In this document: piece after piece, positions 1,251 to 17,590 of the stretch
How positions within the stretch are numbered: the first letter of the stretch is position 1
Layout: every line of letters starts with the position of its first letter
Origin: a virus
Lineage: Duplodnaviria; Heunggongvirae; Uroviricota; Caudoviricetes
IMG/VR virus record: IMGVR_UViG_2883489344_000002
DNA length: 37,764 nt
Reading direction: 5' to 3' (one strand)
Program-made: the position numbers and the translations under genes
Notes under the pieces: generated by a model
What the model saw: the letters and a program-made list of their open reading frames with translations, nothing else
Databases searched by the model: none
Told to the model about the DNA's origin: nothing

Positions 1251-2201
1251 ATGACGATCATTTTATTCATTATTGGTATAGTTGTTGTCTCATGTATTTA
1301 TGAAGCTCTTTTTAAGAGTAGCTCAGTTAATGACATCAAGAAAAGCAATAGTGGGACTCAATTTAAGAAAGTTGAACCAAATAAAAATGCAGTAAAAAAA
1401 ACATCGCTGGAATCATACGAAAACATTTCAAAAAAAGAAGACAACCCATCATTTAGTGAAAGCAATGCTGCAATAAATTACATATTATTTAATGCGAAAA
1501 AAAATTCAGAAACATCCCTTGCAGAAAAAGAAAGCAAAGCAGTAAGTCTTGAAGAATTATTTAGCCAAATACAAAACCTGTCTGATAAAAAGTTTGTTTT
1601 TTTCGATGCATTTGAATCTAACGGTTTGTCATGTTATTTTCTACATGACTATTATCCGTTAAAATATACTGACATCTCTGAAAAAAACAAAGAAAATAGA
1701 AAGATTGTTTATGATTTTAAAGATGGTTTGTTAAATGAAAAAACAAAGAATATCCCTAAAGAGATAGCGACAATTTTGCTGAATAGTTTTAGTAAGGATT
1801 TACTAAAAGAAACAATATTTATATGTCTTCCTTCCTCTACACAGCTAAAATATAGAAGAAGATATACGCGCTTCAGTGAAGAAATTTGTAAATCTTGTGG
1901 AATGATAAATTTTTTCCAGCATGTATCCTATCTTTGGGATAGGAAAGCAAAACATATTGAGGGAATCTCTGCGGGCAGTGAATTATCTCACATTTATTTC
2001 CCTGAAAAAATAGTAGAAAATAAGAATATAATAATTTTTGATGACGTTTTCACTACAGGGAAAACACTCCACGCCATGGAATCAAAATTAAAGCTATACG
2101 GAGCAAACGTCGTGGCAGCCATTTTTATTGGTAAAACTTATGATCAGCATAGAATCAAAAAGGGCATGCTCCGAAAAACCTATTCTTTGATTGAGGATTA
2201 A
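1251..2201 (+). CDS. ComF-like phosphoribosyltransferase with N-terminal membrane anchor; putative ShosT-like defence effector
   Basis: PRPP-binding loop IIIFDDVFTTGKT. Hydrophobic residues 1-21, then a K/E/S/N-rich linker. AT-rich; stop is 3 nt before the DprA-like gene. Confidence 0.85.
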   Translation: MTIILFIIGIVVVSCIYEALFKSSSVNDIKKSNSGTQFKKVEPNKNAVKKTSLESYENISKKEDNPSFSESNAAINYILFNAKKNSETSLAEKESKAVSLEELFSQIQNLSDKKFVFFDAFESNGLSCYFLHDYYPLKYTDISEKNKENRKIVYDFKDGLLNEKTKNIPKEIATILLNSFSKDLLKETIFICLPSSTQLKYRRRYTRFSEEICKSCGMINFFQHVSYLWDRKAKHIEGISAGSELSHIYFPEKIVENKNIIIFDDVFTTGKTLHAMESKLKLYGANVVAAIFIGKTYDQHRIKKGMLRKTYSLIED

Positions 2202-2204
2202 ACT

Positions 2205-3167
2205 ATGGGATTGAGTGCATCAAATATTTTATTCCTAAAATCAGTTCCTTACGTAGGAAACCAATCAGTGTTAAAACTTTTAGGGCAAGATAAGGGAAAT
2301 GATTATGTATCTGTAGCCGATATAATTGACTTCTTTCTAAGCACTTCAAAAATGAAGACCATTAGGTTGGAAACTTTAGATTTCCTGAAAAGCAGAGAAA
2401 AATGCAATAAGTTATACAATGAAATAGAAAGAAAAATTGATATAGGTTATTGTAGTGGTGTCATTCCTCTTGGTTATAATGACGACAATTTTCCTACATC
2501 ATTAAAAATTATAAAAAATAAAAGCGGGGGTAATATTGCCCCTACTGTTATCTTCTACAAAGGGAATGTCGATTGTTTAAGCTATAGTCAAAATGCTACT
2601 GTTATTGGCTCTAGAAAACCTACTGAGCGGACAAAGAAAGCCGGGGAGTATATAGCAAAATTTCTTTCGGATAATGATTTTAATATCGTAAGCGGCTTAG
2701 CCAAAGGATGCGATGAAATAGTCCATTCGGTTGCAGTATCTAGAAAAACAAAAACCACTGCTATTTTGCCACAAGGTATCGATAAAATTTACCCTTCCAC
2801 TAGTACAAAGCTAGCCGAATCTATCGTTGATACAGGTGGTATTCTTCTGTCTGAGCTTATGATTGGCGAACGTGTAACTAAATATAGCTTAGTAGAAAGA
2901 GATAGATTGCAAAGCGCTATTTCAGATAAAACTATCGTTTTACAAACAGCAATAGATGGAGGAACTATGCATGCAGCAATGAGTGCGCTATATAATCTGA
3001 AAAAACTCTATGTCATCGATTACAAATCTATAAATAGTGAGGATGCTGTTTTTTATTCAGGATTTGAGCATTTACTAAGCAATGGCGCGCAAAAATTGAA
3101 TTCGAATGAAATGTATAATTTAGTGACAATGAAAGAGAACAAAAAACAAGAATCTTTATTTGACTAA
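2205..3167 (+). CDS. DprA/SMF-family protein; putative ShosA-like partner
   Basis: DprA Rossmann motifs VIGSR, IVSGLAKGCD, GGILLSE, ERDRLQSAIS, GGTMH. Operonic with the PRTase. Confidence 0.9.
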   Translation: MGLSASNILFLKSVPYVGNQSVLKLLGQDKGNDYVSVADIIDFFLSTSKMKTIRLETLDFLKSREKCNKLYNEIERKIDIGYCSGVIPLGYNDDNFPTSLKIIKNKSGGNIAPTVIFYKGNVDCLSYSQNATVIGSRKPTERTKKAGEYIAKFLSDNDFNIVSGLAKGCDEIVHSVAVSRKTKTTAILPQGIDKIYPSTSTKLAESIVDTGGILLSELMIGERVTKYSLVERDRLQSAISDKTIVLQTAIDGGTMHAAMSALYNLKKLYVIDYKSINSEDAVFYSGFEHLLSNGAQKLNSNEMYNLVTMKENKKQESLFD

Positions 3168-3308
3168 TAACTTTACGTAGCTAAGTGGATACATAATGGC
3201 AAGCTGGTCAACTGCCTAATAATCAGTTATCTGGTACTGACCTGCTTTCCGACGATCATCACATGTTAATATTAGTCATGCCGCCCGACGGTAATGAAAA
3301 ATGAGAAC

Positions 3309-3332
3309 ATCCGCTTCTCGCTCAAAGCCGAC
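3309..3332 (+). repeat. 24-bp palindromic site, type A
   Basis: ATCCGCTTCTCGCTCAAAGCCGAC, 21/24 identical to 1024-1047. Confidence 0.85.
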
Positions 3333-3343
3333 CTTATGCCGCG

Positions 3344-3394
3344 TCAAGCCACGTTATGGCAAAACAGCCCGTGCTGTCGATAGCGTGGATAGCC
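3344..3394 (+). repeat. 51-bp inverted repeat, left copy
   Basis: TCAAGCCACGTTATGGCAAAACAGCCCGTGCTGTCGATAGCGTGGATAGCC; 48/51 identical to the reverse complement of 4198-4248. Confidence 0.95.
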
Positions 3395-3595
3395 AGAGAT
3401 TATCCCCTACATGGCCCGTACCGCCGTAGCTAGTGCGGACCATCGGGAACCGAAGTAGGGGGATCCCTACAACTGGCACGTGCTGTCGTTAGCAATTGGG
3501 CGATTTGAGAGAATTGCCTGCCTGTCGCGGACAGCTATGAGAGAGGTGAGATCGGTCGTGTTTAATCCGCCGCCTGTTCTGCCGGCTCCGCCCAC

Positions 3596-5118: not shown

Positions 5119-5763
5119 TTATCGATATCCAAAATAATCCCTGTCGCGCTCTTTGGCATAGGCCTTATCCAGGTTAAGCGTATCGCCGCGCGCATCGCCA
5201 AACGGCACGTTGCCCACGCCCCCATCAAAGCTGTTATCAGGCGACCCGGCGGCCAATGCCTCGAATGGCGTCACCCTTACGTCATCCTCGGGGTGCAGCA
5301 GCTGGTTGATACGGCCGGATACGGCGCTGATCTCGGTGGCAGTCATAATGGTGCCGCGCGGCTTGGTCTCGTTAAAGACCCCGACACCCGAAGACGGCTC
5401 CAAGGTATTGCCCGAGTCCGCTCCGTAGAGCTTCATGATCTCCCACGTACCCTCAGCTACATGCTGCGGGGAGTAATACTCATGCGTCGATCCGCCGATC
5501 CCGCCCTCGCCGGTGTACCCCGCCAAGGTCTGACGCTGCTCGTCTGTCAGCTGCGCACCGTCTGGCAGGCTCTCCAGCAACGCGATCGCTTTCTGGTTAG
5601 CTTCCTTGCGAGCGCGCTCGATAGACACCCCCGCCTGCTTGCGGATCCCGAAGGTCACAACCGGCCGGCGGCTGGCCAGCGATCGGATGATCCGCACAAT
5701 CTCTGAAATCGAGTTACAGCCCTGAATGGCGGCACTGATTTTGTTCCGTAAATCGTCAGGCAT
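5119..5763 (-). pseudogene. darB: Truncated P1 DarB homologue (N-terminal ~214 aa, partial methyltransferase domain)
   Basis: EANQKAIALL, LTDEQRQTLAGYTGEGGIGGS, NTLEPSSGVGVFNETKP, SGRINQLLHPED and GNVPFG match the P1 DarB N-terminus as recalled. P1 DarB is over 2000 aa. Similarity stops near 5140 and no downstream frame continues it. Divergent from prt as in P1. Confidence 0.93.
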
Positions 5764-5803
5764 TCGCCATCTCCAAAGTGAACATTTGCTACGTTGCCGC
5801 CAC

Positions 5804-5824
5804 ATTCTAGGAATTCTTACATCT
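5804..5824 (-). promoter_or_regulatory. P1-type late promoter for darB
   Basis: Minus strand AGATGTAAGAA-TTCC-TAGAAT; same box-N4-TANNNT layout as three other copies. Confidence 0.6.
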
Positions 5825-5842
5825 AAGAGGGTTGTGGCTCCG

Positions 5843-7582
5843 ATGCCGAAATTTGCATACGACACCATTCGCAAAGCACTGGAAGCAGCAATGCCCGGTA
5901 GCGCATCGAATAAGGGGGTTCCTTTGGCACTGGGTCCCACCAGCAGCGGCGGTAATGGCGTGGTTTATTCACGCTCTGCCCTGTTTGGCAACGATGCGGC
6001 GGGAAAAGACTTCACTGACACGCTGGTTAATCCTGGCGGGCAAGTCTTAGATGAGGCGGTGCTACCTGAAGATCGGCTAATGCGCTATCCGTTTTTAGAG
6101 GAGATGGCCGCTTACCCAACCCTTTCGGCCGCGCTCAACATCCATATCTCCTATGCGTTTTCGATAGACAAAACCACCAATCTTTCGTTTCGGCTGAAGC
6201 CGGTAACCAATAGCGAAGACAAGGATTTTGAGTCTGCACAAACGCTCTGCGAGGAGCTGATGGCGGACATTGGGCGCACCATCAACGACGAATTACCGGG
6301 CTGGGCAACCATCATGGCTGTGTTTGGCACGGGCTATATCCGGCCGCACACCAAGCCCAAGGTAGGTATTACCGGCTTTGAGTCCAATTTCTACACCCTG
6401 CCCTATTTCATCCGTGAGTATGAAGTGGGTGGCCAGCTGGCCGGCTTCACCGGGGACTACCTGAAGGATGGCAATGGTGCGCTGGTATTTGCCAAGCCGT
6501 GGGAAATGGTGCCAATGCGCATCCCCTATTGGCGGCCGAAGAAAAACCAAATGCCGATGTACACCGGCACCGAGCAATTCAGCCTGTTATCTGATCCTGA
6601 AAAGCGCGTTCCCGTTGAGACCCAAAACTATGGGACCAGCCTGTTTGAGTATGCCTATGAACCGTATCTCAACCTACGGGCGGCCATCCGCTCGGTAAAG
6701 GGCACCCGCTTCAATGCCAGTAAGGTCGATCGGCTGATCGGGGTTCAAATGTCCTCCCTTGACCCGGCGCGTGGCGCGGAATACAGCCGTACCCTTTCCC
6801 AGCAGCTCAAGCGGTCTGCCGAACAGGTTGAGAAGCGGGCGCGCGGTCACAAAACCGCTCCGACCGTGATCAATACCCTGCTGCCTATCCTGGGGGCGGA
6901 CGGCAAAGGTCAGCTGCAAATCGACACGCAGACAATCCCGGTAGACATCACCGCTCTGGAAGACGTGATGTTCCACATCAAACAGCTGACCGCCAGTGTT
7001 GGAATGGATTACACCATGCTGGGCTTTGCTGACCAGATGTCTGGCGGGCTGGGGGAAGGCGGTTTCCTGCGCACGTCCATTCAGGCCGGCATGATCGCCA
7101 GCTGGTTGCGCGGCGGTGCCGCTGAGATGATTTACCGGATGTGTGACATTCACCTTGCCTTCAAATACGGGAAGGTTTACCCGCCCGGACAACGCCCGTT
7201 CGAGATCGAATTTAACTCGATGGCCACCAGCATCGAACTGGAAGAAAACGCCGCGCTCGATGGCCGCGCCAACTACGCCAGTGTGCTGGTGACCATCATT
7301 GATGCCATTTGCAATAACCCATCACTGGCCGGCTCCGAGACGTTCAAGCAGCTGGTGATGGGAGACATTTTAAAGGTGCCGCAGGAGCGCCTCTCCCTAC
7401 TGCTGACCGAGATCAAAAACGCCCCCAGCACAGAGGGCAACAACATGATGGAGAGCTTGGGCATCACGCCAGACCAGACGATCAGCGACCCGGATTTGCT
7501 GGCCATCATGAAAGCTATGCCCCGTGGCGATCTGGAGGACGTCATATTGAAAACATTCTGTAACCAAGAGGAAAAGCCATGA
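5843..7582 (+). CDS. prt: P1-like portal protein
   Basis: LPEDRLMRYPFLEEMA, ETQNYGTSLFEYAYEPY and DQMSGGLGEGGFLRT match P1 Prt. Start placed at ATG 5843 (GTG 5834 possible); the ORF-track extension overlaps darB. Confidence 0.95.
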   Translation: MPKFAYDTIRKALEAAMPGSASNKGVPLALGPTSSGGNGVVYSRSALFGNDAAGKDFTDTLVNPGGQVLDEAVLPEDRLMRYPFLEEMAAYPTLSAALNIHISYAFSIDKTTNLSFRLKPVTNSEDKDFESAQTLCEELMADIGRTINDELPGWATIMAVFGTGYIRPHTKPKVGITGFESNFYTLPYFIREYEVGGQLAGFTGDYLKDGNGALVFAKPWEMVPMRIPYWRPKKNQMPMYTGTEQFSLLSDPEKRVPVETQNYGTSLFEYAYEPYLNLRAAIRSVKGTRFNASKVDRLIGVQMSSLDPARGAEYSRTLSQQLKRSAEQVEKRARGHKTAPTVINTLLPILGADGKGQLQIDTQTIPVDITALEDVMFHIKQLTASVGMDYTMLGFADQMSGGLGEGGFLRTSIQAGMIASWLRGGAAEMIYRMCDIHLAFKYGKVYPPGQRPFEIEFNSMATSIELEENAALDGRANYASVLVTIIDAICNNPSLAGSETFKQLVMGDILKVPQERLSLLLTEIKNAPSTEGNNMMESLGITPDQTISDPDLLAIMKAMPRGDLEDVILKTFCNQEEKP

Positions 7583-8616
7583 GTCAGAAGGTACTCGCTA
7601 CCCATACCGATCGCTTCTCGCTGTTTGAGAAGGTACGCAAGGGCAAGCAAAACAACCGCAACTACATGCTGGAGGCGGTGAAATCGATGATTAACAGCCC
7701 GGAGACCCAAGAGGGGCTGCGACTGGGTGAGCTGTACGGCTATTACGGTCACACCCGCCGGGTAATGACGGGCAATATGGAGCTGCCGGAGACAGCGGTG
7801 GTGATGGTGGAAGGCAAAGCCGTGGTATTGGACAACGTGCCCTCCAACCGCACCGTTGAGCTGTCGGTTGACGATGACGGCGTAGTAACCCATACCGAAG
7901 AGATTTTTGAGACCCCCACCGGCAAGATCGTGGCCTCCATGCTTGAATCTCGCGCGGGCGGCTGGTCATGGGTGACCACCGGGCGCGATTCCCCGGCGAT
8001 CTCGATCCCCAAGGCATTCTATGGTTTCGACTATGTGACCATGCCGAATTTCATCAGCAAAGACCATCCAGCCGCAATGCATGAAAGTGCAGATTCACGT
8101 ACAGCGGCGATGCTGGAATCTCTGCAAAATCAGGGCTTCAGCAGTGACGCAGCCACCAGCATTATCGAGCACTATGATTTGCTGAGCCACCGCGAAGCCA
8201 TGATCGAAAGTGTGCTGCGCGTAGAGGAGCTGGAGAGCACCACCCTCATTGCTACCGGCCAACTGTTGGCAAAGGAGCGTGAGCTTGAGGAAACCCGCGC
8301 CATGCTTGAATCCTTACGCACTGCGAATGCCCAGCAGGGCAACATGATGGAAGGCCGTAAGTCCATGCTGGCCAAAGCCCTCGACCGGCTGCCGGTATTC
8401 GTCACTGAGCGCCATCGTTCAGCACTCGCCAACATGCAAACAGAGGATGATCTGGCCGTCGCAGTAGCGCTGTTTGAATCGCTTTCTCGCCCAGAGATCC
8501 GCACCCTACCTTTGCATAATGATGCAATTTTTGAGAGTAAAAAAACGAGTTGCGCTGTAGGGTACGACGACAATTCGATCGTATCTTTCACCAATGAAGT
8601 ACCACGATTCGGGTAA
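7579..8616 (+). CDS. pro: P1-like prohead protease
   Basis: ETQEGLRLGELYGYYGH, ESRAGGWSW and DYVTMPNFIS match P1 Pro. ATGA overlap with prt. Confidence 0.95.
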   Translation: MSQKVLATHTDRFSLFEKVRKGKQNNRNYMLEAVKSMINSPETQEGLRLGELYGYYGHTRRVMTGNMELPETAVVMVEGKAVVLDNVPSNRTVELSVDDDGVVTHTEEIFETPTGKIVASMLESRAGGWSWVTTGRDSPAISIPKAFYGFDYVTMPNFISKDHPAAMHESADSRTAAMLESLQNQGFSSDAATSIIEHYDLLSHREAMIESVLRVEELESTTLIATGQLLAKERELEETRAMLESLRTANAQQGNMMEGRKSMLAKALDRLPVFVTERHRSALANMQTEDDLAVAVALFESLSRPEIRTLPLHNDAIFESKKTSCAVGYDDNSIVSFTNEVPRFG

Positions 8617-8711
8617 AATTCAACGCCTTAAATATACCCATATGATAATTGTGGATTAAAGGTTTAGTATTGCCGCTTGATCCTTTACACGATCCGCGAT
8701 TAAACTCCTCG

Positions 8712-8750
8712 GCGCATTGAGATCCTCTTAGGTTTCAATGCGCTTTTTTT
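8712..8750 (+). terminator. Intrinsic terminator after prt-pro
   Basis: GCGCATTGA...TCAATGCGC stem followed by a T run. Confidence 0.7.
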
Positions 8751-8773
8751 TCAGTCACTCAAGGAGCTATTCC

Positions 8774-9013
8774 ATGGAAAACCAGCACCGCTTGATTAAA
8801 ACCTATCGAGAGCTATCCGCTGAAGAGATCGCCTTAATGAATAGCGGCAAAGAGCTTGAAACAGCCGTACAGGCCTATGTTAACCGCCTGCATGAGGCGC
8901 ATAACGCTGGGGAAGTGGTGATTGAGCAACGTTGGCTGGCTATCGGCAAGACCGATATTGAGAAAGGTTTTATGGCCGTCATTCGCGCTATTGCAAAACC
9001 TGACGTGGCATAA
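8774..9013 (+). CDS. acb2: Acb2-family anti-CBASS cyclic-oligonucleotide sponge (79 aa)
   Basis: MENQHRLIKTYRELSAEEIALMNSGK and RWLAIGKTDIEKGFMAVIRAIAKP parallel Pseudomonas phage Acb2 (MDNQHRKIAGYRDL...[24 protein letters not shown], recalled). Y11 and K26 fall at the same positions. SD AAGGAG at 8761-8766. Confidence 0.9.
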   Translation: MENQHRLIKTYRELSAEEIALMNSGKELETAVQAYVNRLHEAHNAGEVVIEQRWLAIGKTDIEKGFMAVIRAIAKPDVA

Positions 9014-9040
9014 AAAAAAGGCCACCGAAACGGTAGCCTT
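9012..9040 (-). terminator. Minus-strand intrinsic terminator
   Basis: AGGCTACCG-TTT-CGGTGGCC-T8. The stem has a G-U pair on the minus strand but a C-A mismatch and no U-tract on the plus strand. Confidence 0.8.
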
Positions 9041-9066
9041 ACAAATAATTCAAAAATCTAAACCTG
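9012..9066 (-). ncRNA. Predicted ~55-nt antisense RNA to the repL 5' region (ends approximate)
   Basis: Minus-strand sigma70 promoter TTGAAA(9101-9096)-17-TATAGT(9078-9073) points at a minus-strand intrinsic terminator (9040-9012). No ORF lies between them. Confidence 0.55.
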
Positions 9067-10044
9067 ATGAAAACTATACCAAAAAAAACCTGTTCTTTCA
9101 AGGAGACAGGTGATTTAAACGGCTATGGCCTGCGTCGCGCCATTGAAGCCCTGACCAATGATTGCTTGCCCCGCCCCGCGCGCGTTGTCCTGTCACAATG
9201 CTGCTCCGTCGCCGCCAGCACCAGTGCCTTCAAAATCACTATGGCTCGCTCCAAAATGGCAGAATTGTGCGGGGTAACCTCTGCAACCATCCGCCGTCGC
9301 TTCAAAGACTCTGTGAGTGCCACGATCATCACTGAAACTGCCGTATTTGATCGTAAGGCAGGCGGGTTCGGCCAGATGCCTACTGAGTACCAGTTTACCA
9401 AGCCATTTTTACAAGCTGCCAAGGCCTTTTGTAAGGCATGGGATACGGGTACAAGAGAGGTTAAGACATTAGCCCAAAAGGCCTTTAATGAGGCCATAAA
9501 AAATCTTCAAAATAAGCCACTTACCTCGGACACCCCCCGATCAAAATTATCGGCCACCCCCGATCAGGATGATCACCAAATACTTGGATTTACTGAATAC
9601 GAGAATCCAAAAGACTATGCGGCTCCGCCCGCAGATTTTGACAGGCCAAAGGCCAAAAGTTGGGATGATGCCCGTGCAGAACGCGCCACGACGCAAGCAC
9701 AGGATCACAAAGCCCGGCAGGAAGCAGCCCGTGCCAAGCGCCAGCAGTCCACCAGCAAGCTCAAGGGGCTGGCAAGGTGGGCATTCAATGGCAGCCGCGC
9801 CACCGGCAGGGCTACGCCACAGACAAGCCACAATGCCGCCCGCATGAGAGAGTCAGACCAGCGGCATGAGCAAACCACCAAAGATGCGGCACGGGCACAC
9901 CGCGAGGCACTGGCAAGCGGGTATAGCCCTCTTGATGCTATTCGCCGTGTGATGCCCGGCTACCGCCCTACTACCACCAGCAAGGATCACCATGACACAT
10001 ACCGGGACGTTAACCAGCCCACGCAAGCCAAAGGGGCGTTTTAA
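9067..10044 (+). CDS. repL: P1 RepL-like lytic replication initiator (HTH)
   Basis: LNGYGL...ARVVLSQCCSVAASTSAFKI, an HTH (MAELCGVTSATIRR), YQFTKPFL and TPDQDD parallel P1 RepL (FSGYEL...ILSQCANLAATTSEYFI, YRFTPSFL, PCQDD, recalled). Confidence 0.7.
   Translation: MKTIPKKTCSFKETGDLNGYGLRRAIEALTNDCLPRPARVVLSQCCSVAASTSAFKITMARSKMAELCGVTSATIRRRFKDSVSATIITETAVFDRKAGGFGQMPTEYQFTKPFLQAAKAFCKAWDTGTREVKTLAQKAFNEAIKNLQNKPLTSDTPRSKLSATPDQDDHQILGFTEYENPKDYAAPPADFDRPKAKSWDDARAERATTQAQDHKARQEAARAKRQQSTSKLKGLARWAFNGSRATGRATPQTSHNAARMRESDQRHEQTTKDAARAHREALASGYSPLDAIRRVMPGYRPTTTSKDHHDTYRDVNQPTQAKGAF
9534..9566 (+). repeat. Direct repeat CCCCCGATCA x2 inside repL; candidate oriL element
   Basis: Copies at 9534-9543 and 9557-9566, followed by a third GATC. 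Confidence 0.4.
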
Positions 10045-10527
10045 GCCTCGCCAGCCGTCTGCCACCCGCTCTCCTGCCCCGACGTCGGAGGAAATCAAAG
10101 CGGCGCACACGCAGGTAGGGACTGAAATCACCCGAAAGAAAAACCATAGCCAACGGATGTTTGTGAAAAAGCTGTTCCCGGCGCTGTTTTCTGGCGATCA
10201 CCCCTCCCGATGGAGAAAGGGATCAAAGACGCCATGCTGACGTCGATTGTGCGCCGTGGGCTGGACGTATCCGAGGCACGGCTACAGGCCGCACTTCGCG
10301 CCTGTTGCGCGTCGCTGGTGTACCGGGCAAGGGTATGCGCTATGCGTTTTCGCCGTGACATAGATGGCAAGCCAGTAGAGGCCATTGAGGAAGAAGACAA
10401 GAACCACGCATGGCAGAAAATTGTGGAGTATCGGGCGCGCCACCAGCTCCCCAGTTGCCGCCGGTGTGGAAGAAAAGCGCCGTTAAGAAGCGTCCGGCCA
10501 AGCCCGGCAAGCGTCGGGCACGGGTAG
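9992..10527 (+). CDS. FinO/ProQ-family RNA chaperone, split by a one-base loss in a C run (10201-10204)
   Basis: ORFs 9992..10240 and 10210..10527 join as LFPALFSGDHPLPMEKGIKD...RLQAALR...YR...RRDIDGKP with one added C. This is the FinO/ProQ core (LKxGI, RxDLDG). SD AAGGA before ATG 9992. A second slip at C run 10449-10452 is possible. Confidence 0.8.
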
Positions 10528-14591: not shown

Positions 14592-14800
14592 GTTTTTTAA
14601 TATTAAAAAACATTCATTTCATCTTAATAACCATTTCCCTGAATGTTTTTTCACCAGCTCCGTTATCCTTGACTGAAGATAGCTCACTAACTCTGAGCCT
14701 TTCAGTAAAAAGCATTATATGCGGGTCATGTGCTGGTGGCAGCTGGACAGGGCAGTAAAACAACAAGCCATTATTTCAATGTTTTTTAATATTAAAAAAC
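14592..14800. promoter_or_regulatory. Candidate partition centromere: two perfect 20-bp palindromes
   Basis: GTTTTTTAATATTAAAAAAC at 14592-14611 and 14781-14800. Related copies at 15462, 16144 and 16245 flank the par genes. Confidence 0.6.
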
Positions 14801-14916
14801 ACTAAAACAGTTGCCATTTGCATTTTTTTACACGCATATTCATCGGTTCGCATCCCCTTCAGTGGCAGACAGCCATACTTGATTTTCACCCTTTTCTGTA
14901 ACGAGAGGAGTATGTC

Positions 14917-15078
14917 ATGTCCAAAAGCGGCAGCGGCAGTAGCAAAGGTCAGTCATTATCCAATGGAGCCTCCAAGCCCCAGTCTGACCATCCAGATCCG
15001 GGCGGAAACTGGCCGAGCAAGGTTACAGGGGCGGAGTCAGGAGGCGGGAAAGGTAATGCTAAGCAAAAGGGAAAATGA
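14917..15078 (+). CDS. Small Gly/Ser/Lys-rich protein (53 aa), absent from the ORF track
   Basis: MSKSGSGSSKGQSLSNGASKPQSDHPDPGGNWPSKVTGAESGGGKGNAKQKGK. AGGAG is 6 nt before ATG 14917; a terminator follows. Confidence 0.6.
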   Translation: MSKSGSGSSKGQSLSNGASKPQSDHPDPGGNWPSKVTGAESGGGKGNAKQKGK

Positions 15079-15102
15079 GTATTGAGCAGAGAGGATGCTT
15101 TG

Positions 15103-15130
15103 TAGAAGCCCGCGCACGTTGCGGGCTTTC
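15103..15130. terminator. Terminator between the small ORF and the convergent par operon
   Basis: AAGCCCGC...GCGGGCTT hairpin. Confidence 0.7.
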
Positions 15131-15186
15131 ATCAGGATTGTTCGGTTGACAAGGCATCGCCATAATCCTGGGATGTGGACAGGCGG

Positions 15187-15450
15187 TTACTCGCCCCCTA
15201 CCGTTGCCCCTTTATTCAGCAACTGTCGAATAGCGATGTTGATGAGCGCGGCGCGTGATACTCCTTCGGTAGCGCTCCGGGCGTCAAGCTTCTCCAGCAC
15301 TTCCGGGTCGATGGTAAAGGTGATCTGTTGCTTCTTACCTTTCATCACGCCCTTCTTCTTCACCTCAACTCCATCAGGCGCTGAATTGATGAATTTCTCC
15401 TGCTCCACCTCAGAAGGGGTCGCTTTTTTAGGCAGCTTATTAATCGCCAT
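15187..15450 (-). CDS. RHH (ParG/CopG-like) partition DNA-binding protein
   Basis: QITFTIDPEVLEKLDARSATEGVSRAALINIAI RHH with a flexible N-terminus; directly downstream of parA. Confidence 0.8.
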   Translation of the reverse strand: MAINKLPKKATPSEVEQEKFINSAPDGVEVKKKGVMKGKKQQITFTIDPEVLEKLDARSATEGVSRAALINIAIRQLLNKGATVGGE

Positions 15451-15482
15451 TTAATATCACCTTAATATTAAAAACCTGTATT

Positions 15483-16130
15483 TTAATCGTTAAACAATGC
15501 TTTTACCAATGCCTCAAGCTCTGCTGATGCTTTGGGGTCAATGGGCTTATATTCCTGTACACACATGCCACCGCCTGCGGCATTGGAGAACGCTTTGCGG
15601 CCGACGATGGGGGTGGATAAAAATGCCAGCTCGGTATAGTCGGTGATGATTTCAGCGGCTTCACGGTTGTCGATAGAGTGAGGGTTGGCATCGGCCGCGT
15701 TGATGATGGTGTAGGCAATGAGGTCATCGCGCATACTCCGAGCCTCTTTAATCAGCTCCGAGATGTCTTCAAGCGCCCAAACGTCAAAACTGCCGGGGCG
15801 GTAAGGAACAAGTAGGACGTCAGTCAGGATCAGCGCAGCCCTCAGAGCGGTGGAGTCGCGCCCGCCCGCATCAATGATGATGTCGTCATATTTCCCGCGC
15901 TGCTGGAGCAGCTGGGAGCGGAGGATAGAGCCATCTGGGTATGCCGCACAGGCGATGCCCGGCAAGTCCTCACGTTCTGCCCGGAAGCCTATCGCGGTTT
16001 GGGCTGTACCCTGACGGTCACCATCGATCAGCAACACATCCCGTCCCTGCTTTGCTCGCGCAGCTGCAATGTTGATAGCAAGTGTCGTTTTACCCACTCC
16101 ACCTTTGGTGTTACCCACGGTCAGTATCAT
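15483..16130 (-). CDS. parA: Short ParA-family partition ATPase (type Ib-like, 215 aa)
   Basis: Deviant Walker A KGGVGKTT, VLLIDGDRQ and IIIDAGG; no N-terminal HTH. ATG 16130. Confidence 0.93.
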   Translation of the reverse strand: MILTVGNTKGGVGKTTLAINIAAARAKQGRDVLLIDGDRQGTAQTAIGFRAEREDLPGIACAAYPDGSILRSQLLQQRGKYDDIIIDAGGRDSTALRAALILTDVLLVPYRPGSFDVWALEDISELIKEARSMRDDLIAYTIINAADANPHSIDNREAAEIITDYTELAFLSTPIVGRKAFSNAAGGGMCVQEYKPIDPKASAELEALVKALFND

Positions 16131-16401
16131 ATTAATTTCATCCTTTTTAATATTAAAAAACCTCAATCGACATCATCATGTTACCTCGCCCAGATGCGCT
16201 GTCAATAAACCAGAATACAGTGAAAGAGCATTATTAAACATTACTTTAATATTAAAATAATGTTTTTTGATGGGGTTATGAGTAACAAGTAGAGAATTCT
16301 CAAGGAGTTGGACGTGAAGTGGTGAGAGAAGGTGACAGGCTAGTAATGCAGGTAGCTTTCGATGTGTGCTGGTGGGGCATTCAGCCGCTCGATGTGTTTA
16401 G

Positions 16402-16694
16402 GTATTTGGTAGCACGTATACATATGCGATCGAGGTCACATTATATTTACTTGCACGTATAAGGGGGGTGTGAACCTCGATAGAAGTTCAGAATGTATTT
16501 AGTTACACGTTAACAAGGCTACAATCTGTACTTTCACGTGTTTCTAAATACATTCGCATGAAGATATGGCTCAGGATTGCTCATAAATTAAGCTTTTCGA
16601 GGCCACCAAGATACAAGAACGTGTTACTAAATACATTTCATGAATGATTACGTGCTTGTAAATACCTTTTCGACGCCAACGTGCTACTAAATTC
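16402..16694. repeat. Copy-control (incA-like) iterons downstream of repA
   Basis: Seven CGTGNNNNTAAATAC-like 15-mers: minus strand at 16402, 16443, 16495; plus strand at 16537, 16620, 16651, 16680. Confidence 0.8.
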
Positions 16695-16702
16695 TTTTGG
16701 TC

Positions 16703-17590
16703 TTATTCGATGATATCTAAGGATTTTAACTTAGGATGACGCTCGAAAATGATAAACTGTATTTCTCTACCCTTCTTCGTCTCACTGTATGATAAATATC
16801 CAATTTTCTCTAAATCAGCCAGGGCACGGCGAATGATCTGATTTTGCACATTAACTGGGGATTCCATAGCTAATCTTTCACGTAACCTTTTCATTGATAT
16901 GAATAAAGTTCCGCTAGGCATACTCTCGAAGTAGATATAAAGGGATTGTGCAGCCTCTTTCTTCGCCAACTCAGCTAATGCCTTAAGCCCTAGCAACACT
17001 TTATGGTCATATCGATAAAGCTCCCATAACCGCTTGTCTCCAATGATTTCTACGGTATCGTTTTTGATGTCTAAAACAGCACTATGAACCAGGTGAGTGA
17101 TCATAGATTTCTGTCCATCTTTGGAGCTGAAGGCGAGTGTAAGGCTTGAGATATTGAATAGTGAGTCGTGTAAGCGAGTACGCAAGCGCGCTTTGATATC
17201 GACTGATTTGATACCACATAGCTTAGCAAACTCAACGAAAGGGAGGTTTATCTTTTCGCTTGAAAATCCATAAGTTGAGAATGCAGATATGATGCCTATC
17301 CATGTTTTGAAATCAGTAGACATATTCAATTTTGCACCTTGAATCTTGATGTTCGAATATCCCTCCTGGCGTGCAACTTCAAGGCTAGACAACTCTTCAG
17401 ATGCATCAATCTGAAAATCACGCTTTCCCTTGTTTTTTGGGGAAACAGGTGTGAATACGCTTAAGCGTAACAGTGCTACTGGTTGCACAGTCTTATGGCT
17501 ATTAGGTACTAGTTCATAAACTGTGCCAGACTCCTTCCTAACCACCGCAAATGGATTACCTAATTCGTTGTTTTCAGCGTTCTTTTCCAT
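16703..17590 (-). CDS. repA: Plasmid replication initiator, RepFIB/P1-RepA family
   Basis: KTVQPVALLRLSVFTP, IKIQGAKLNMSTDFKTWIGII, LWELYRYDHKVLL and AAQSLYIYFESMP; flanked by iterons. Confidence 0.93.
   Translation of the reverse strand: MEKNAENNELGNPFAVVRKESGTVYELVPNSHKTVQPVALLRLSVFTPVSPKNKGKRDFQIDASEELSSLEVARQEGYSNIKIQGAKLNMSTDFKTWIGIISAFSTYGFSSEKINLPFVEFAKLCGIKSVDIKARLRTRLHDSLFNISSLTLAFSSKDGQKSMITHLVHSAVLDIKNDTVEIIGDKRLWELYRYDHKVLLGLKALAELAKKEAAQSLYIYFESMPSGTLFISMKRLRERLAMESPVNVQNQIIRRALADLEKIGYLSYSETKKGREIQFIIFERHPKLKSLDIIE

Follow-up and report, generated by a model that had tools for sequence, protein, structure and literature searches.

Comparative analysis of a 37,764-nt stretch of phage DNA (referred to here as the window) revealed a 79-aa gene, acb2, which on its sequence context appears to be clade-specific cargo inserted into the leader of a RepL-like replication gene, at the promoter-proximal slot that kilA holds in P1. 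This reading follows from the occurrence of the gene in only three of eight elements compared, always between a block of GATC sites and an antisense terminator. The protein itself adds little, because it is a further member of a known sponge family that is well characterised and very widespread; the only new aspect is where the gene sits, namely in the leader of RepL in one P1-like sub-lineage. The statement as a whole, combining a functional Acb2 sponge, placement in the repL leader, co-transcription, and timing, is judged probable. The features on which the analysis is based are listed in Table 1.

Table 1. Coordinates of the features discussed in the text, given as positions in the window
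Feature	Position	Strand	Description and basis
ShosTA-type defence pair	1251-3167	+	PRTase and DprA-like; PADLOC ShosT E 1.7e-13, ShosA E 4.9e-56
prt and pro	5726-8616	+	P1-type portal and head-processing genes; phrog_1497 and phrog_1801 matches
Promoter-like block	8677-8706	+	TTGATC-18-TAAACT; GATC (Dam) sites at 8679 and 8691; best sigma70-like candidate 5' of acb2
Terminator-like hairpin	8711-8752	+	14-bp hairpin and T8; terminator scan, dG -22.4 kcal/mol, z -4.2; between promoter-like block and acb2 RBS
Shine-Dalgarno sequence	8761-8766	+	AAGGAG, 7 nt 5' of acb2 ATG; read from sequence
acb2	8774-9013	+	79-aa short-form Acb2-family cyclic-oligonucleotide sponge (predicted); Pfam, PDB homology, AF2/Foldseek, contact residues
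Intrinsic terminator	9010-9040	-	Hairpin 9040-9018 followed by T8; 3' of acb2; no T-tail on the plus strand
RepL-like gene	9067-10044	+	Replication initiator, 325 aa; BLASTP to P1 RepL, alignment, synteny after prt-pro
Antisense promoter	9073-9101	-	TTGAAA-17-TATAGT with upstream TG, 10/12 match; within first repL-like codons
FinO/ProQ-domain gene	10210-10527	+	RNA chaperone; Pfam ProQ E 1e-11, NCBIfam FinO E 1.1e-10 (below cut-off)

Contig C7, of which the window makes up the first 37.8 kb, is 101,864 bp long and has a GC content of 52.7%, compared with 60.8% for the chromosome of the same genome. The host genus is probably Chimaeribacter, since the nearest named homologue of the Acb2 protein came from C. 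californicus. As the initial annotation had proposed, the element is a P1-like phage-plasmid, carrying P1-type virion and Dar genes together with a plasmid replicon composed of a Rep3-type initiator and ParA (15483-17590), both of non-P1 type; it is, however, a distant relative of approximately 102 kb and not a Punavirus. Its portal showed 53% identity to P1 Prt, and Pro was 50% identical in Cronobacter phage JK004 and in genome G171. The other P1-type genes included DarA-like, Hdf-like, DdrA-like, and PmgB-like genes, a Sit-like tail transglycosylase gene, and baseplate and tube genes. The P1 C1-operator consensus had no match at up to three mismatches, and matches to the P1 late-promoter -22 box were no commoner than in shuffled sequences. 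A megablast search of positions 8000-10500 against phages and plasmids returned nothing, which indicates that the phage and plasmid sets searched contain no close relative of the element.

The mixture of anti-defence and defence cargo described at the outset was also found within the window, with Acb2 and the DarA-, Hdf-, and DdrA-like proteins on one side and the ShosTA-type pair and several TA modules on the other. The Pfam domains of the ShosTA-type pair were DNA_processg_A and Pribosyltran, the latter at 25.3 bits, just under its 26.3-bit cut-off. The palindrome TTTTTAATATTAAAAA was present in about five copies around the ParA gene (14594-16246), and these copies are candidate partition or operator sites. 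Chi-containing 11-mers (GCTGGTGG core) were among the most frequent words of contig C7.

The acb2 ORF begins at ATG 8774 and ends with TAA at 9011-9013, with an intact frame of 79 codons, exactly as annotated. Translation from the ATG at 8738, which would give a longer frame, is unlikely, as the homologues all begin at MENQH; this start would also lie within the upstream hairpin and its T-run, and the position of the RBS argues against it. Comparison with the ortholog from the same genus (genome G122, 74% identity) gave a pN of 0.165 and a pS of 0.82, the latter being saturated, which indicates that acb2 is under purifying selection.

Profile searches assigned the protein to Pfam PF24729 (Acb2_Tad1_hairpin) with an E-value of 3e-15 and a score of 56.6 bits over profile positions 1-58 of 58, against a curated cut-off of 27 bits, and the match to the acb2 product was confirmed on the genome. 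A single-sequence phmmer search of the PDB retrieved PaMx33 Acb2 ('p26') as 8h2j (E 4.5e-16) and 8ixz (E 1.8e-15). A profile built from 63 homologues reached PaMx33 Acb2 with an E-value of 1.8e-32 and T4 Vs.4 with an E-value of 1.8e-5. The Acb2 N- and C-terminal signatures noted in the initial annotation are thus real, on both the Pfam and the PaMx33 matches, and correspond to an MxNQHxxIKxYRxLSxEEI block and an RWLAIGKTDI...IRAIAxP block common to the window protein and PaMx33 Acb2.

The structure comparison with Acb2 that had been suggested for this protein pointed to the same family. An AlphaFold2 model based on the 63-homologue alignment (mean pLDDT 88.7) contained helices at residues 4-7, 16-44, and 52-74 and no beta strands, giving a short N-terminal helix and two long antiparallel helices, which is the protomer fold of the family. 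Foldseek comparison of this model with the PDB returned Acb2 (8h2j, 8h2x) or T4 Vs.4 (7uq2) at ranks 1-9 with TM values of 0.61-0.76, Vs.4 occupying ranks 7-9; the next match had an E-value of approximately 1, so that significant fold matches were confined to Acb2/Vs.4. Identity to PaMx33 Acb2 (PDB 8H2J, 8H2X, 8IXZ) was approximately 45-48%, with the helical hairpin and the contacts to cGAMP and cA3 kept, whereas identity to T4 Vs.4 was just 22-25% or so, despite the common fold and the profile match. PaMx33 is a lytic Pseudomonas phage, whereas the gene described here resides on a phage-plasmid, and the hexamer and ligand binding are predicted here. Membership of the Acb2 family can be regarded as virtually certain, and the predicted activity as a cyclic-dinucleotide sponge as very likely.

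Examination of the ligand-contact residues supported this assignment. In PaMx33 Acb2, cyclic dinucleotides are held by Y11 and K26 and cyclic trinucleotides by R67 and T74, with A70 and I71 (PMC10312549), and the adenine of cGAMP is also contacted by L14 and P90 (PMC12393519). All eight published contacts are kept in the window protein as Y11, L14, K26, P76 (=P90), R53 (=R67), A56 (=A70), I57 (=I71), and T60 (=T74). Four of these, namely Y11, K26, the RW arginine, and the KTD threonine, had been named in the initial annotation; their numbers and roles agree with the published ones (PMC10312549). The trinucleotide-pocket residues R53, A56, I57, and T60 fall inside the RWLAIGKTD block, identical to PaMx33, and such residues mark a broad-spectrum Acb2 subgroup, not the entire family. 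Across the 63 homologues, L14, K26, and R53 were invariant, and Y11 and T60 were at least 90% conserved.

The central helical region had been described as shorter than in other phage Acb2 proteins, and the window protein indeed has 14 residues fewer than PaMx33 Acb2, at the hairpin tip. Among the 120 closest relatives in the database, most were 74-84 aa in length, which suggests that the short form is the usual one among near relatives and that PaMx33 Acb2 is a long variant. JBD67 Acb2, considered as a short form that had already been tested, was ruled out with its length of 108 aa. Binding of trinucleotides (cA3) is less certain than that of dinucleotides, because the shortened tip abuts R53 and because cA3 is not bound by T4 Acb2, even when the D61R mutation provides it with both equivalent residues (PMC10312549). 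Wild-type T4 Acb2 differs from the window protein in this respect, as it has no R67 equivalent, whereas the arginine and the threonine are both present here.

BLASTP analysis of the gene downstream of acb2 revealed a remote relationship to P1 RepL (E 7e-10; 29% identity over the N-terminal 153 aa), and a five-protein alignment that included P1 RepL identified motifs common to the two. No RepL match was obtained in the local Pfam or NCBIfam libraries; homologues of the protein carry a precomputed assignment to PF26868, a family absent from the local library. Metagenomic homologues (P0122-P0128) were also identified, and a search of the genome and viral contig sets found no relatives. The prt-pro-repL-like order recurs in Cronobacter phage JK004, in G171 and G052 (other species of the same GTDB family), and in G122 of the same genus, as well as on plasmids of Pantoea, Enterobacter kobei, and Xenorhabdus bovienii. 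Judged on these comparisons, the repL-like label is justified. The replicon is presumed to be the lytic one, on the analogy with P1 and in view of the separate Rep3/ParA plasmid replicon. A FinO/ProQ gene follows the repL-like gene here and also in JK004 and on the Pantoea plasmid, and its position 3' of the repL-like gene fits an antisense-RNA control module. P1 IsaA was also considered as a homologue of the repL-like gene and rejected as unrelated.

To locate acb2 within this arrangement, the interval from pro to the repL-like gene was compared in eight elements: the window, G122, the plasmid of Pantoea sp. CCBC3-3-1 (NZ_CP034366), JK004, G171, G052, and the E. kobei and X. bovienii plasmids. 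The eight had in common the order prt, pro, GATC cluster, antisense terminator, and repL-like gene, although JK004 has just one GATC site and lacks a candidate antisense promoter. The three acb2 carriers were the window, G122, and NZ_CP034366, each with the gene directly 5' of the repL-like gene. No Acb2 gene was detected in this slot in the other five (JK004, G171, G052, E. kobei, and X. bovienii), and P1 as well as the records of JK004, E. kobei, and X. bovienii yielded no Acb2-family gene at any position. Clusters of two to four GATC sites were located 170-400 nt 5' of the repL-like ATG in seven of the eight elements. Within the promoter-like block, the TTGATC and TAAACT hexamers and the positions of the GATC sites (in the -35 hexamer and in the spacer) were identical in all three acb2 carriers, and the flanks diverged. 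The block matched the promoter consensus at 8 of 12 positions, with a weak -10 hexamer. No other promoter-like site was found between 8707 and 8773, and contig C7 held no repeated operator-like copy of the block elsewhere.

The strong hairpin between the block and acb2 had no equivalent in G122 and no strong one in the Pantoea plasmid. In both of these elements the pro terminator lies 5' of the block, so that terminator and promoter have changed places in the window element. The second hairpin, 3' of acb2, was of a different kind. An A-run followed by a GC-rich hairpin, which can act as a terminator on the minus strand only, was present in all eight elements at 55-164 nt 5' of the repL-like ATG, with differing stem sequences; because the T-run is on the minus strand only, the hairpin at 9010-9040 should not stop sense transcription. 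A minus-strand sigma70-like promoter was found within the first approximately 20 nt of the repL-like ORF in seven of the eight elements. The antisense RNA predicted from these two features is approximately 55 nt long (from about 9066 to 9010) and spans the repL-like leader, overlapping acb2 only at its final bases. As most of acb2 is spared, the output of Acb2 and that of RepL could be uncoupled even on one transcript. A search of Rfam with the region around 9004-9121 yielded sub-threshold, terminator-like matches only.

Differences were observed between the acb2 copies of the three carriers. The ortholog in G122 (contig C68, 4282-4518) differs at the ligand-stacking Tyr11, which is replaced by His, and at Asp61, which is replaced by Gly. 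On NZ_CP034366, acb2 (3200-3435) contains a frameshift at about codon 10-11, and its annotation covers no more than a 51-aa fragment; the GTG start given for the adjoining repL-like gene (3432) is probably wrong, and ATG 3496 aligns with the other homologues. Retention of acb2 in the clade is thus not absolute, given the frameshifted Pantoea copy and the H11 of G122.

The layout of the locus resembles that of kilA-repL in P1. There, three Dam sites are annotated in the PkilA regulatory region, and the operon has an antisense promoter, PaskilA, at its head. Both loci (PkilA/P53, operator Op53, and PaskilA in P1) begin with a promoter that bears clustered GATC sites, next to which lies an accessory gene, followed by repL, the RepL proteins being homologous, and in both an antisense RNA starts near the 5' end of the operon. 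They differ in the accessory gene, which is kilA in P1 and acb2 here, and in their surroundings, as the P1 locus follows ant whereas the locus described here follows prt-pro and is followed by a FinO/ProQ gene. Furthermore, the present locus has no C1 operator consensus, and its predicted antisense RNA spans the repL leader instead of the first gene.

The initial annotation had placed acb2 at the head of a lytic repL operon and had regarded the two genes as co-expressed. The placement has comparative support from the RepL-like gene downstream and from a slot conserved in three elements; against co-expression stand the hairpin and T8 that separate the promoter from acb2. Transcripts from the late prt-pro operon or from the block promoter must cross this terminator-like leader before reaching acb2 in the window, and the hairpin should terminate or attenuate those that start at the block. 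Such an arrangement could also be read as that of a functional but insulated moron outside the repL transcript, expressed on its own or by late read-through from prt-pro, with the block serving as a regulatory or Dam/SeqA site. In keeping with this, acb2 is bracketed by two strong hairpins, the upstream one being a textbook plus-strand terminator after a candidate promoter that scores just 8/12, and its GC content is lower than that of the flanking genes (49% and 55%, respectively), as is typical of genes acquired as cargo. However, the downstream hairpin has no plus-strand T-tail and is kept as an antisense terminator even where acb2 is absent, G122 and Pantoea have the pro terminator 5' of the block and no strong hairpin after it, and the stretch between the block and acb2 offers no other promoter-like site. 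We consider insulation of acb2 unlikely and, from the arrangement of these sequence elements, modestly favour its co-transcription with the repL-like gene.

The ligand and the integrity of the protein were weighed in the same way. Ligand range differs among Acb2 homologues (PMC10312549); ten of them act against type I Thoeris, of which one, Acb2_43, is inactive against CBASS (PMC12393519), so that the window protein could in principle be an Acb2-fold sponge for another ligand, such as the 3'cADPR of Thoeris, and not an anti-CBASS protein. Acb2_43, however, relies on extra N- and C-terminal beta strands and on different contact residues (PMC12393519), whereas the window protein is modelled without beta strands and retains the PaMx33 contacts to cGAMP (Y11, L14, K26, and P90) as well as those to cA3, which makes a different ligand very unlikely. 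That acb2 is a decaying or non-functional remnant might be suspected from the frameshifted copy on the Pantoea plasmid and from a host without CBASS, but its frame is intact, its RBS is good, every ligand contact is kept, and pN is far below pS in the comparison with the same-genus ortholog; decay of this copy is extremely improbable.

According to the preferred reading, in which acb2 encodes a working sponge co-transcribed with the repL-like gene, the protein would be a functional short-form Acb2, a helical hairpin that presumably forms hexamers and captures the nucleotide signals of CBASS. Y11, L14, K26, and P76 would make up the pocket for cyclic dinucleotides, and R53, A56, I57, and T60 another that would probably accommodate cyclic trinucleotides such as cA3. 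One branch of phage-plasmids would have inserted acb2 into the leader of its RepL-type, presumably lytic replicon, 3' of the conserved Dam-site promoter and 5' of the antisense-RNA terminator that would gate repL. Acb2 would then be translated from the RepL transcript as lytic replication begins or shortly before, at the stage when CBASS would be expected to fire if left unchecked. A more specific proposal is possible but tentative: the kilA slot of the lytic replicon may have been refilled with an immune-signal sponge in one P1-like branch, its synthesis being tied to a Dam-sensitive earliest lytic promoter, with RepL gated separately by the antisense RNA of approximately 55 nt and a FinO-type chaperone. 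If this were so, Acb2 would accumulate before replication starts, and some leakage while the element is maintained as a plasmid might also weaken CBASS in the host.

The host genome itself contained no CD-NTase (SMODS). Among 61 genomes comprising the host and 60 relatives, a CD-NTase was found in six (approximately 10%), including one of the three other genomes of the genus, which is consistent with a counter-defence gene carried for horizontal spread. The anti-CBASS gene would in this setting be clade-specific cargo of P1-like phage-plasmids, together with Dar anti-restriction genes and a ShosTA pair. Its defined and comparatively conserved slot in a RepL-type leader would provide a testable case of the way in which a temperate phage-plasmid coordinates counter-defence with the beginning of lytic replication, and a natural 79-aa short-form Acb2 with the residues of both ligand pockets intact would be useful for biochemical comparison.

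Acb2 homologues are numerous outside this clade, a recent survey having reported 4,204 non-redundant sequences, some of which bind the 3'cADPR of Thoeris instead. In our searches, homologues were present in 241 phage records and 48 plasmid records and in 17-20 of the 401 species genomes of the host's family. In a full-text literature search, Acb2 in phage-plasmids appeared only as an incidental mention. Klebsiella accounted for 35 of the 48 plasmid records with Acb2, most of them approximately 110 kb in size and non-mobilizable. The 81-aa proteins of these Klebsiella phage-plasmids were the closest named relatives outside the genus (58-62% identity); they are also of the short form, and their elements are likewise non-mobilizable phage-plasmids. 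The single one examined, Klebsiella oxytoca pCAV1099-111, differs in that its acb2 stands beside a DUF2829 gene in another type of element and not in a repL leader. On that plasmid (1968-2746), the gene for the 81-aa Acb2 homologue overlaps the stop codon of the DUF2829 (Tad2-type) gene, and the overlapping genes look like a two-sponge anti-defence pair.
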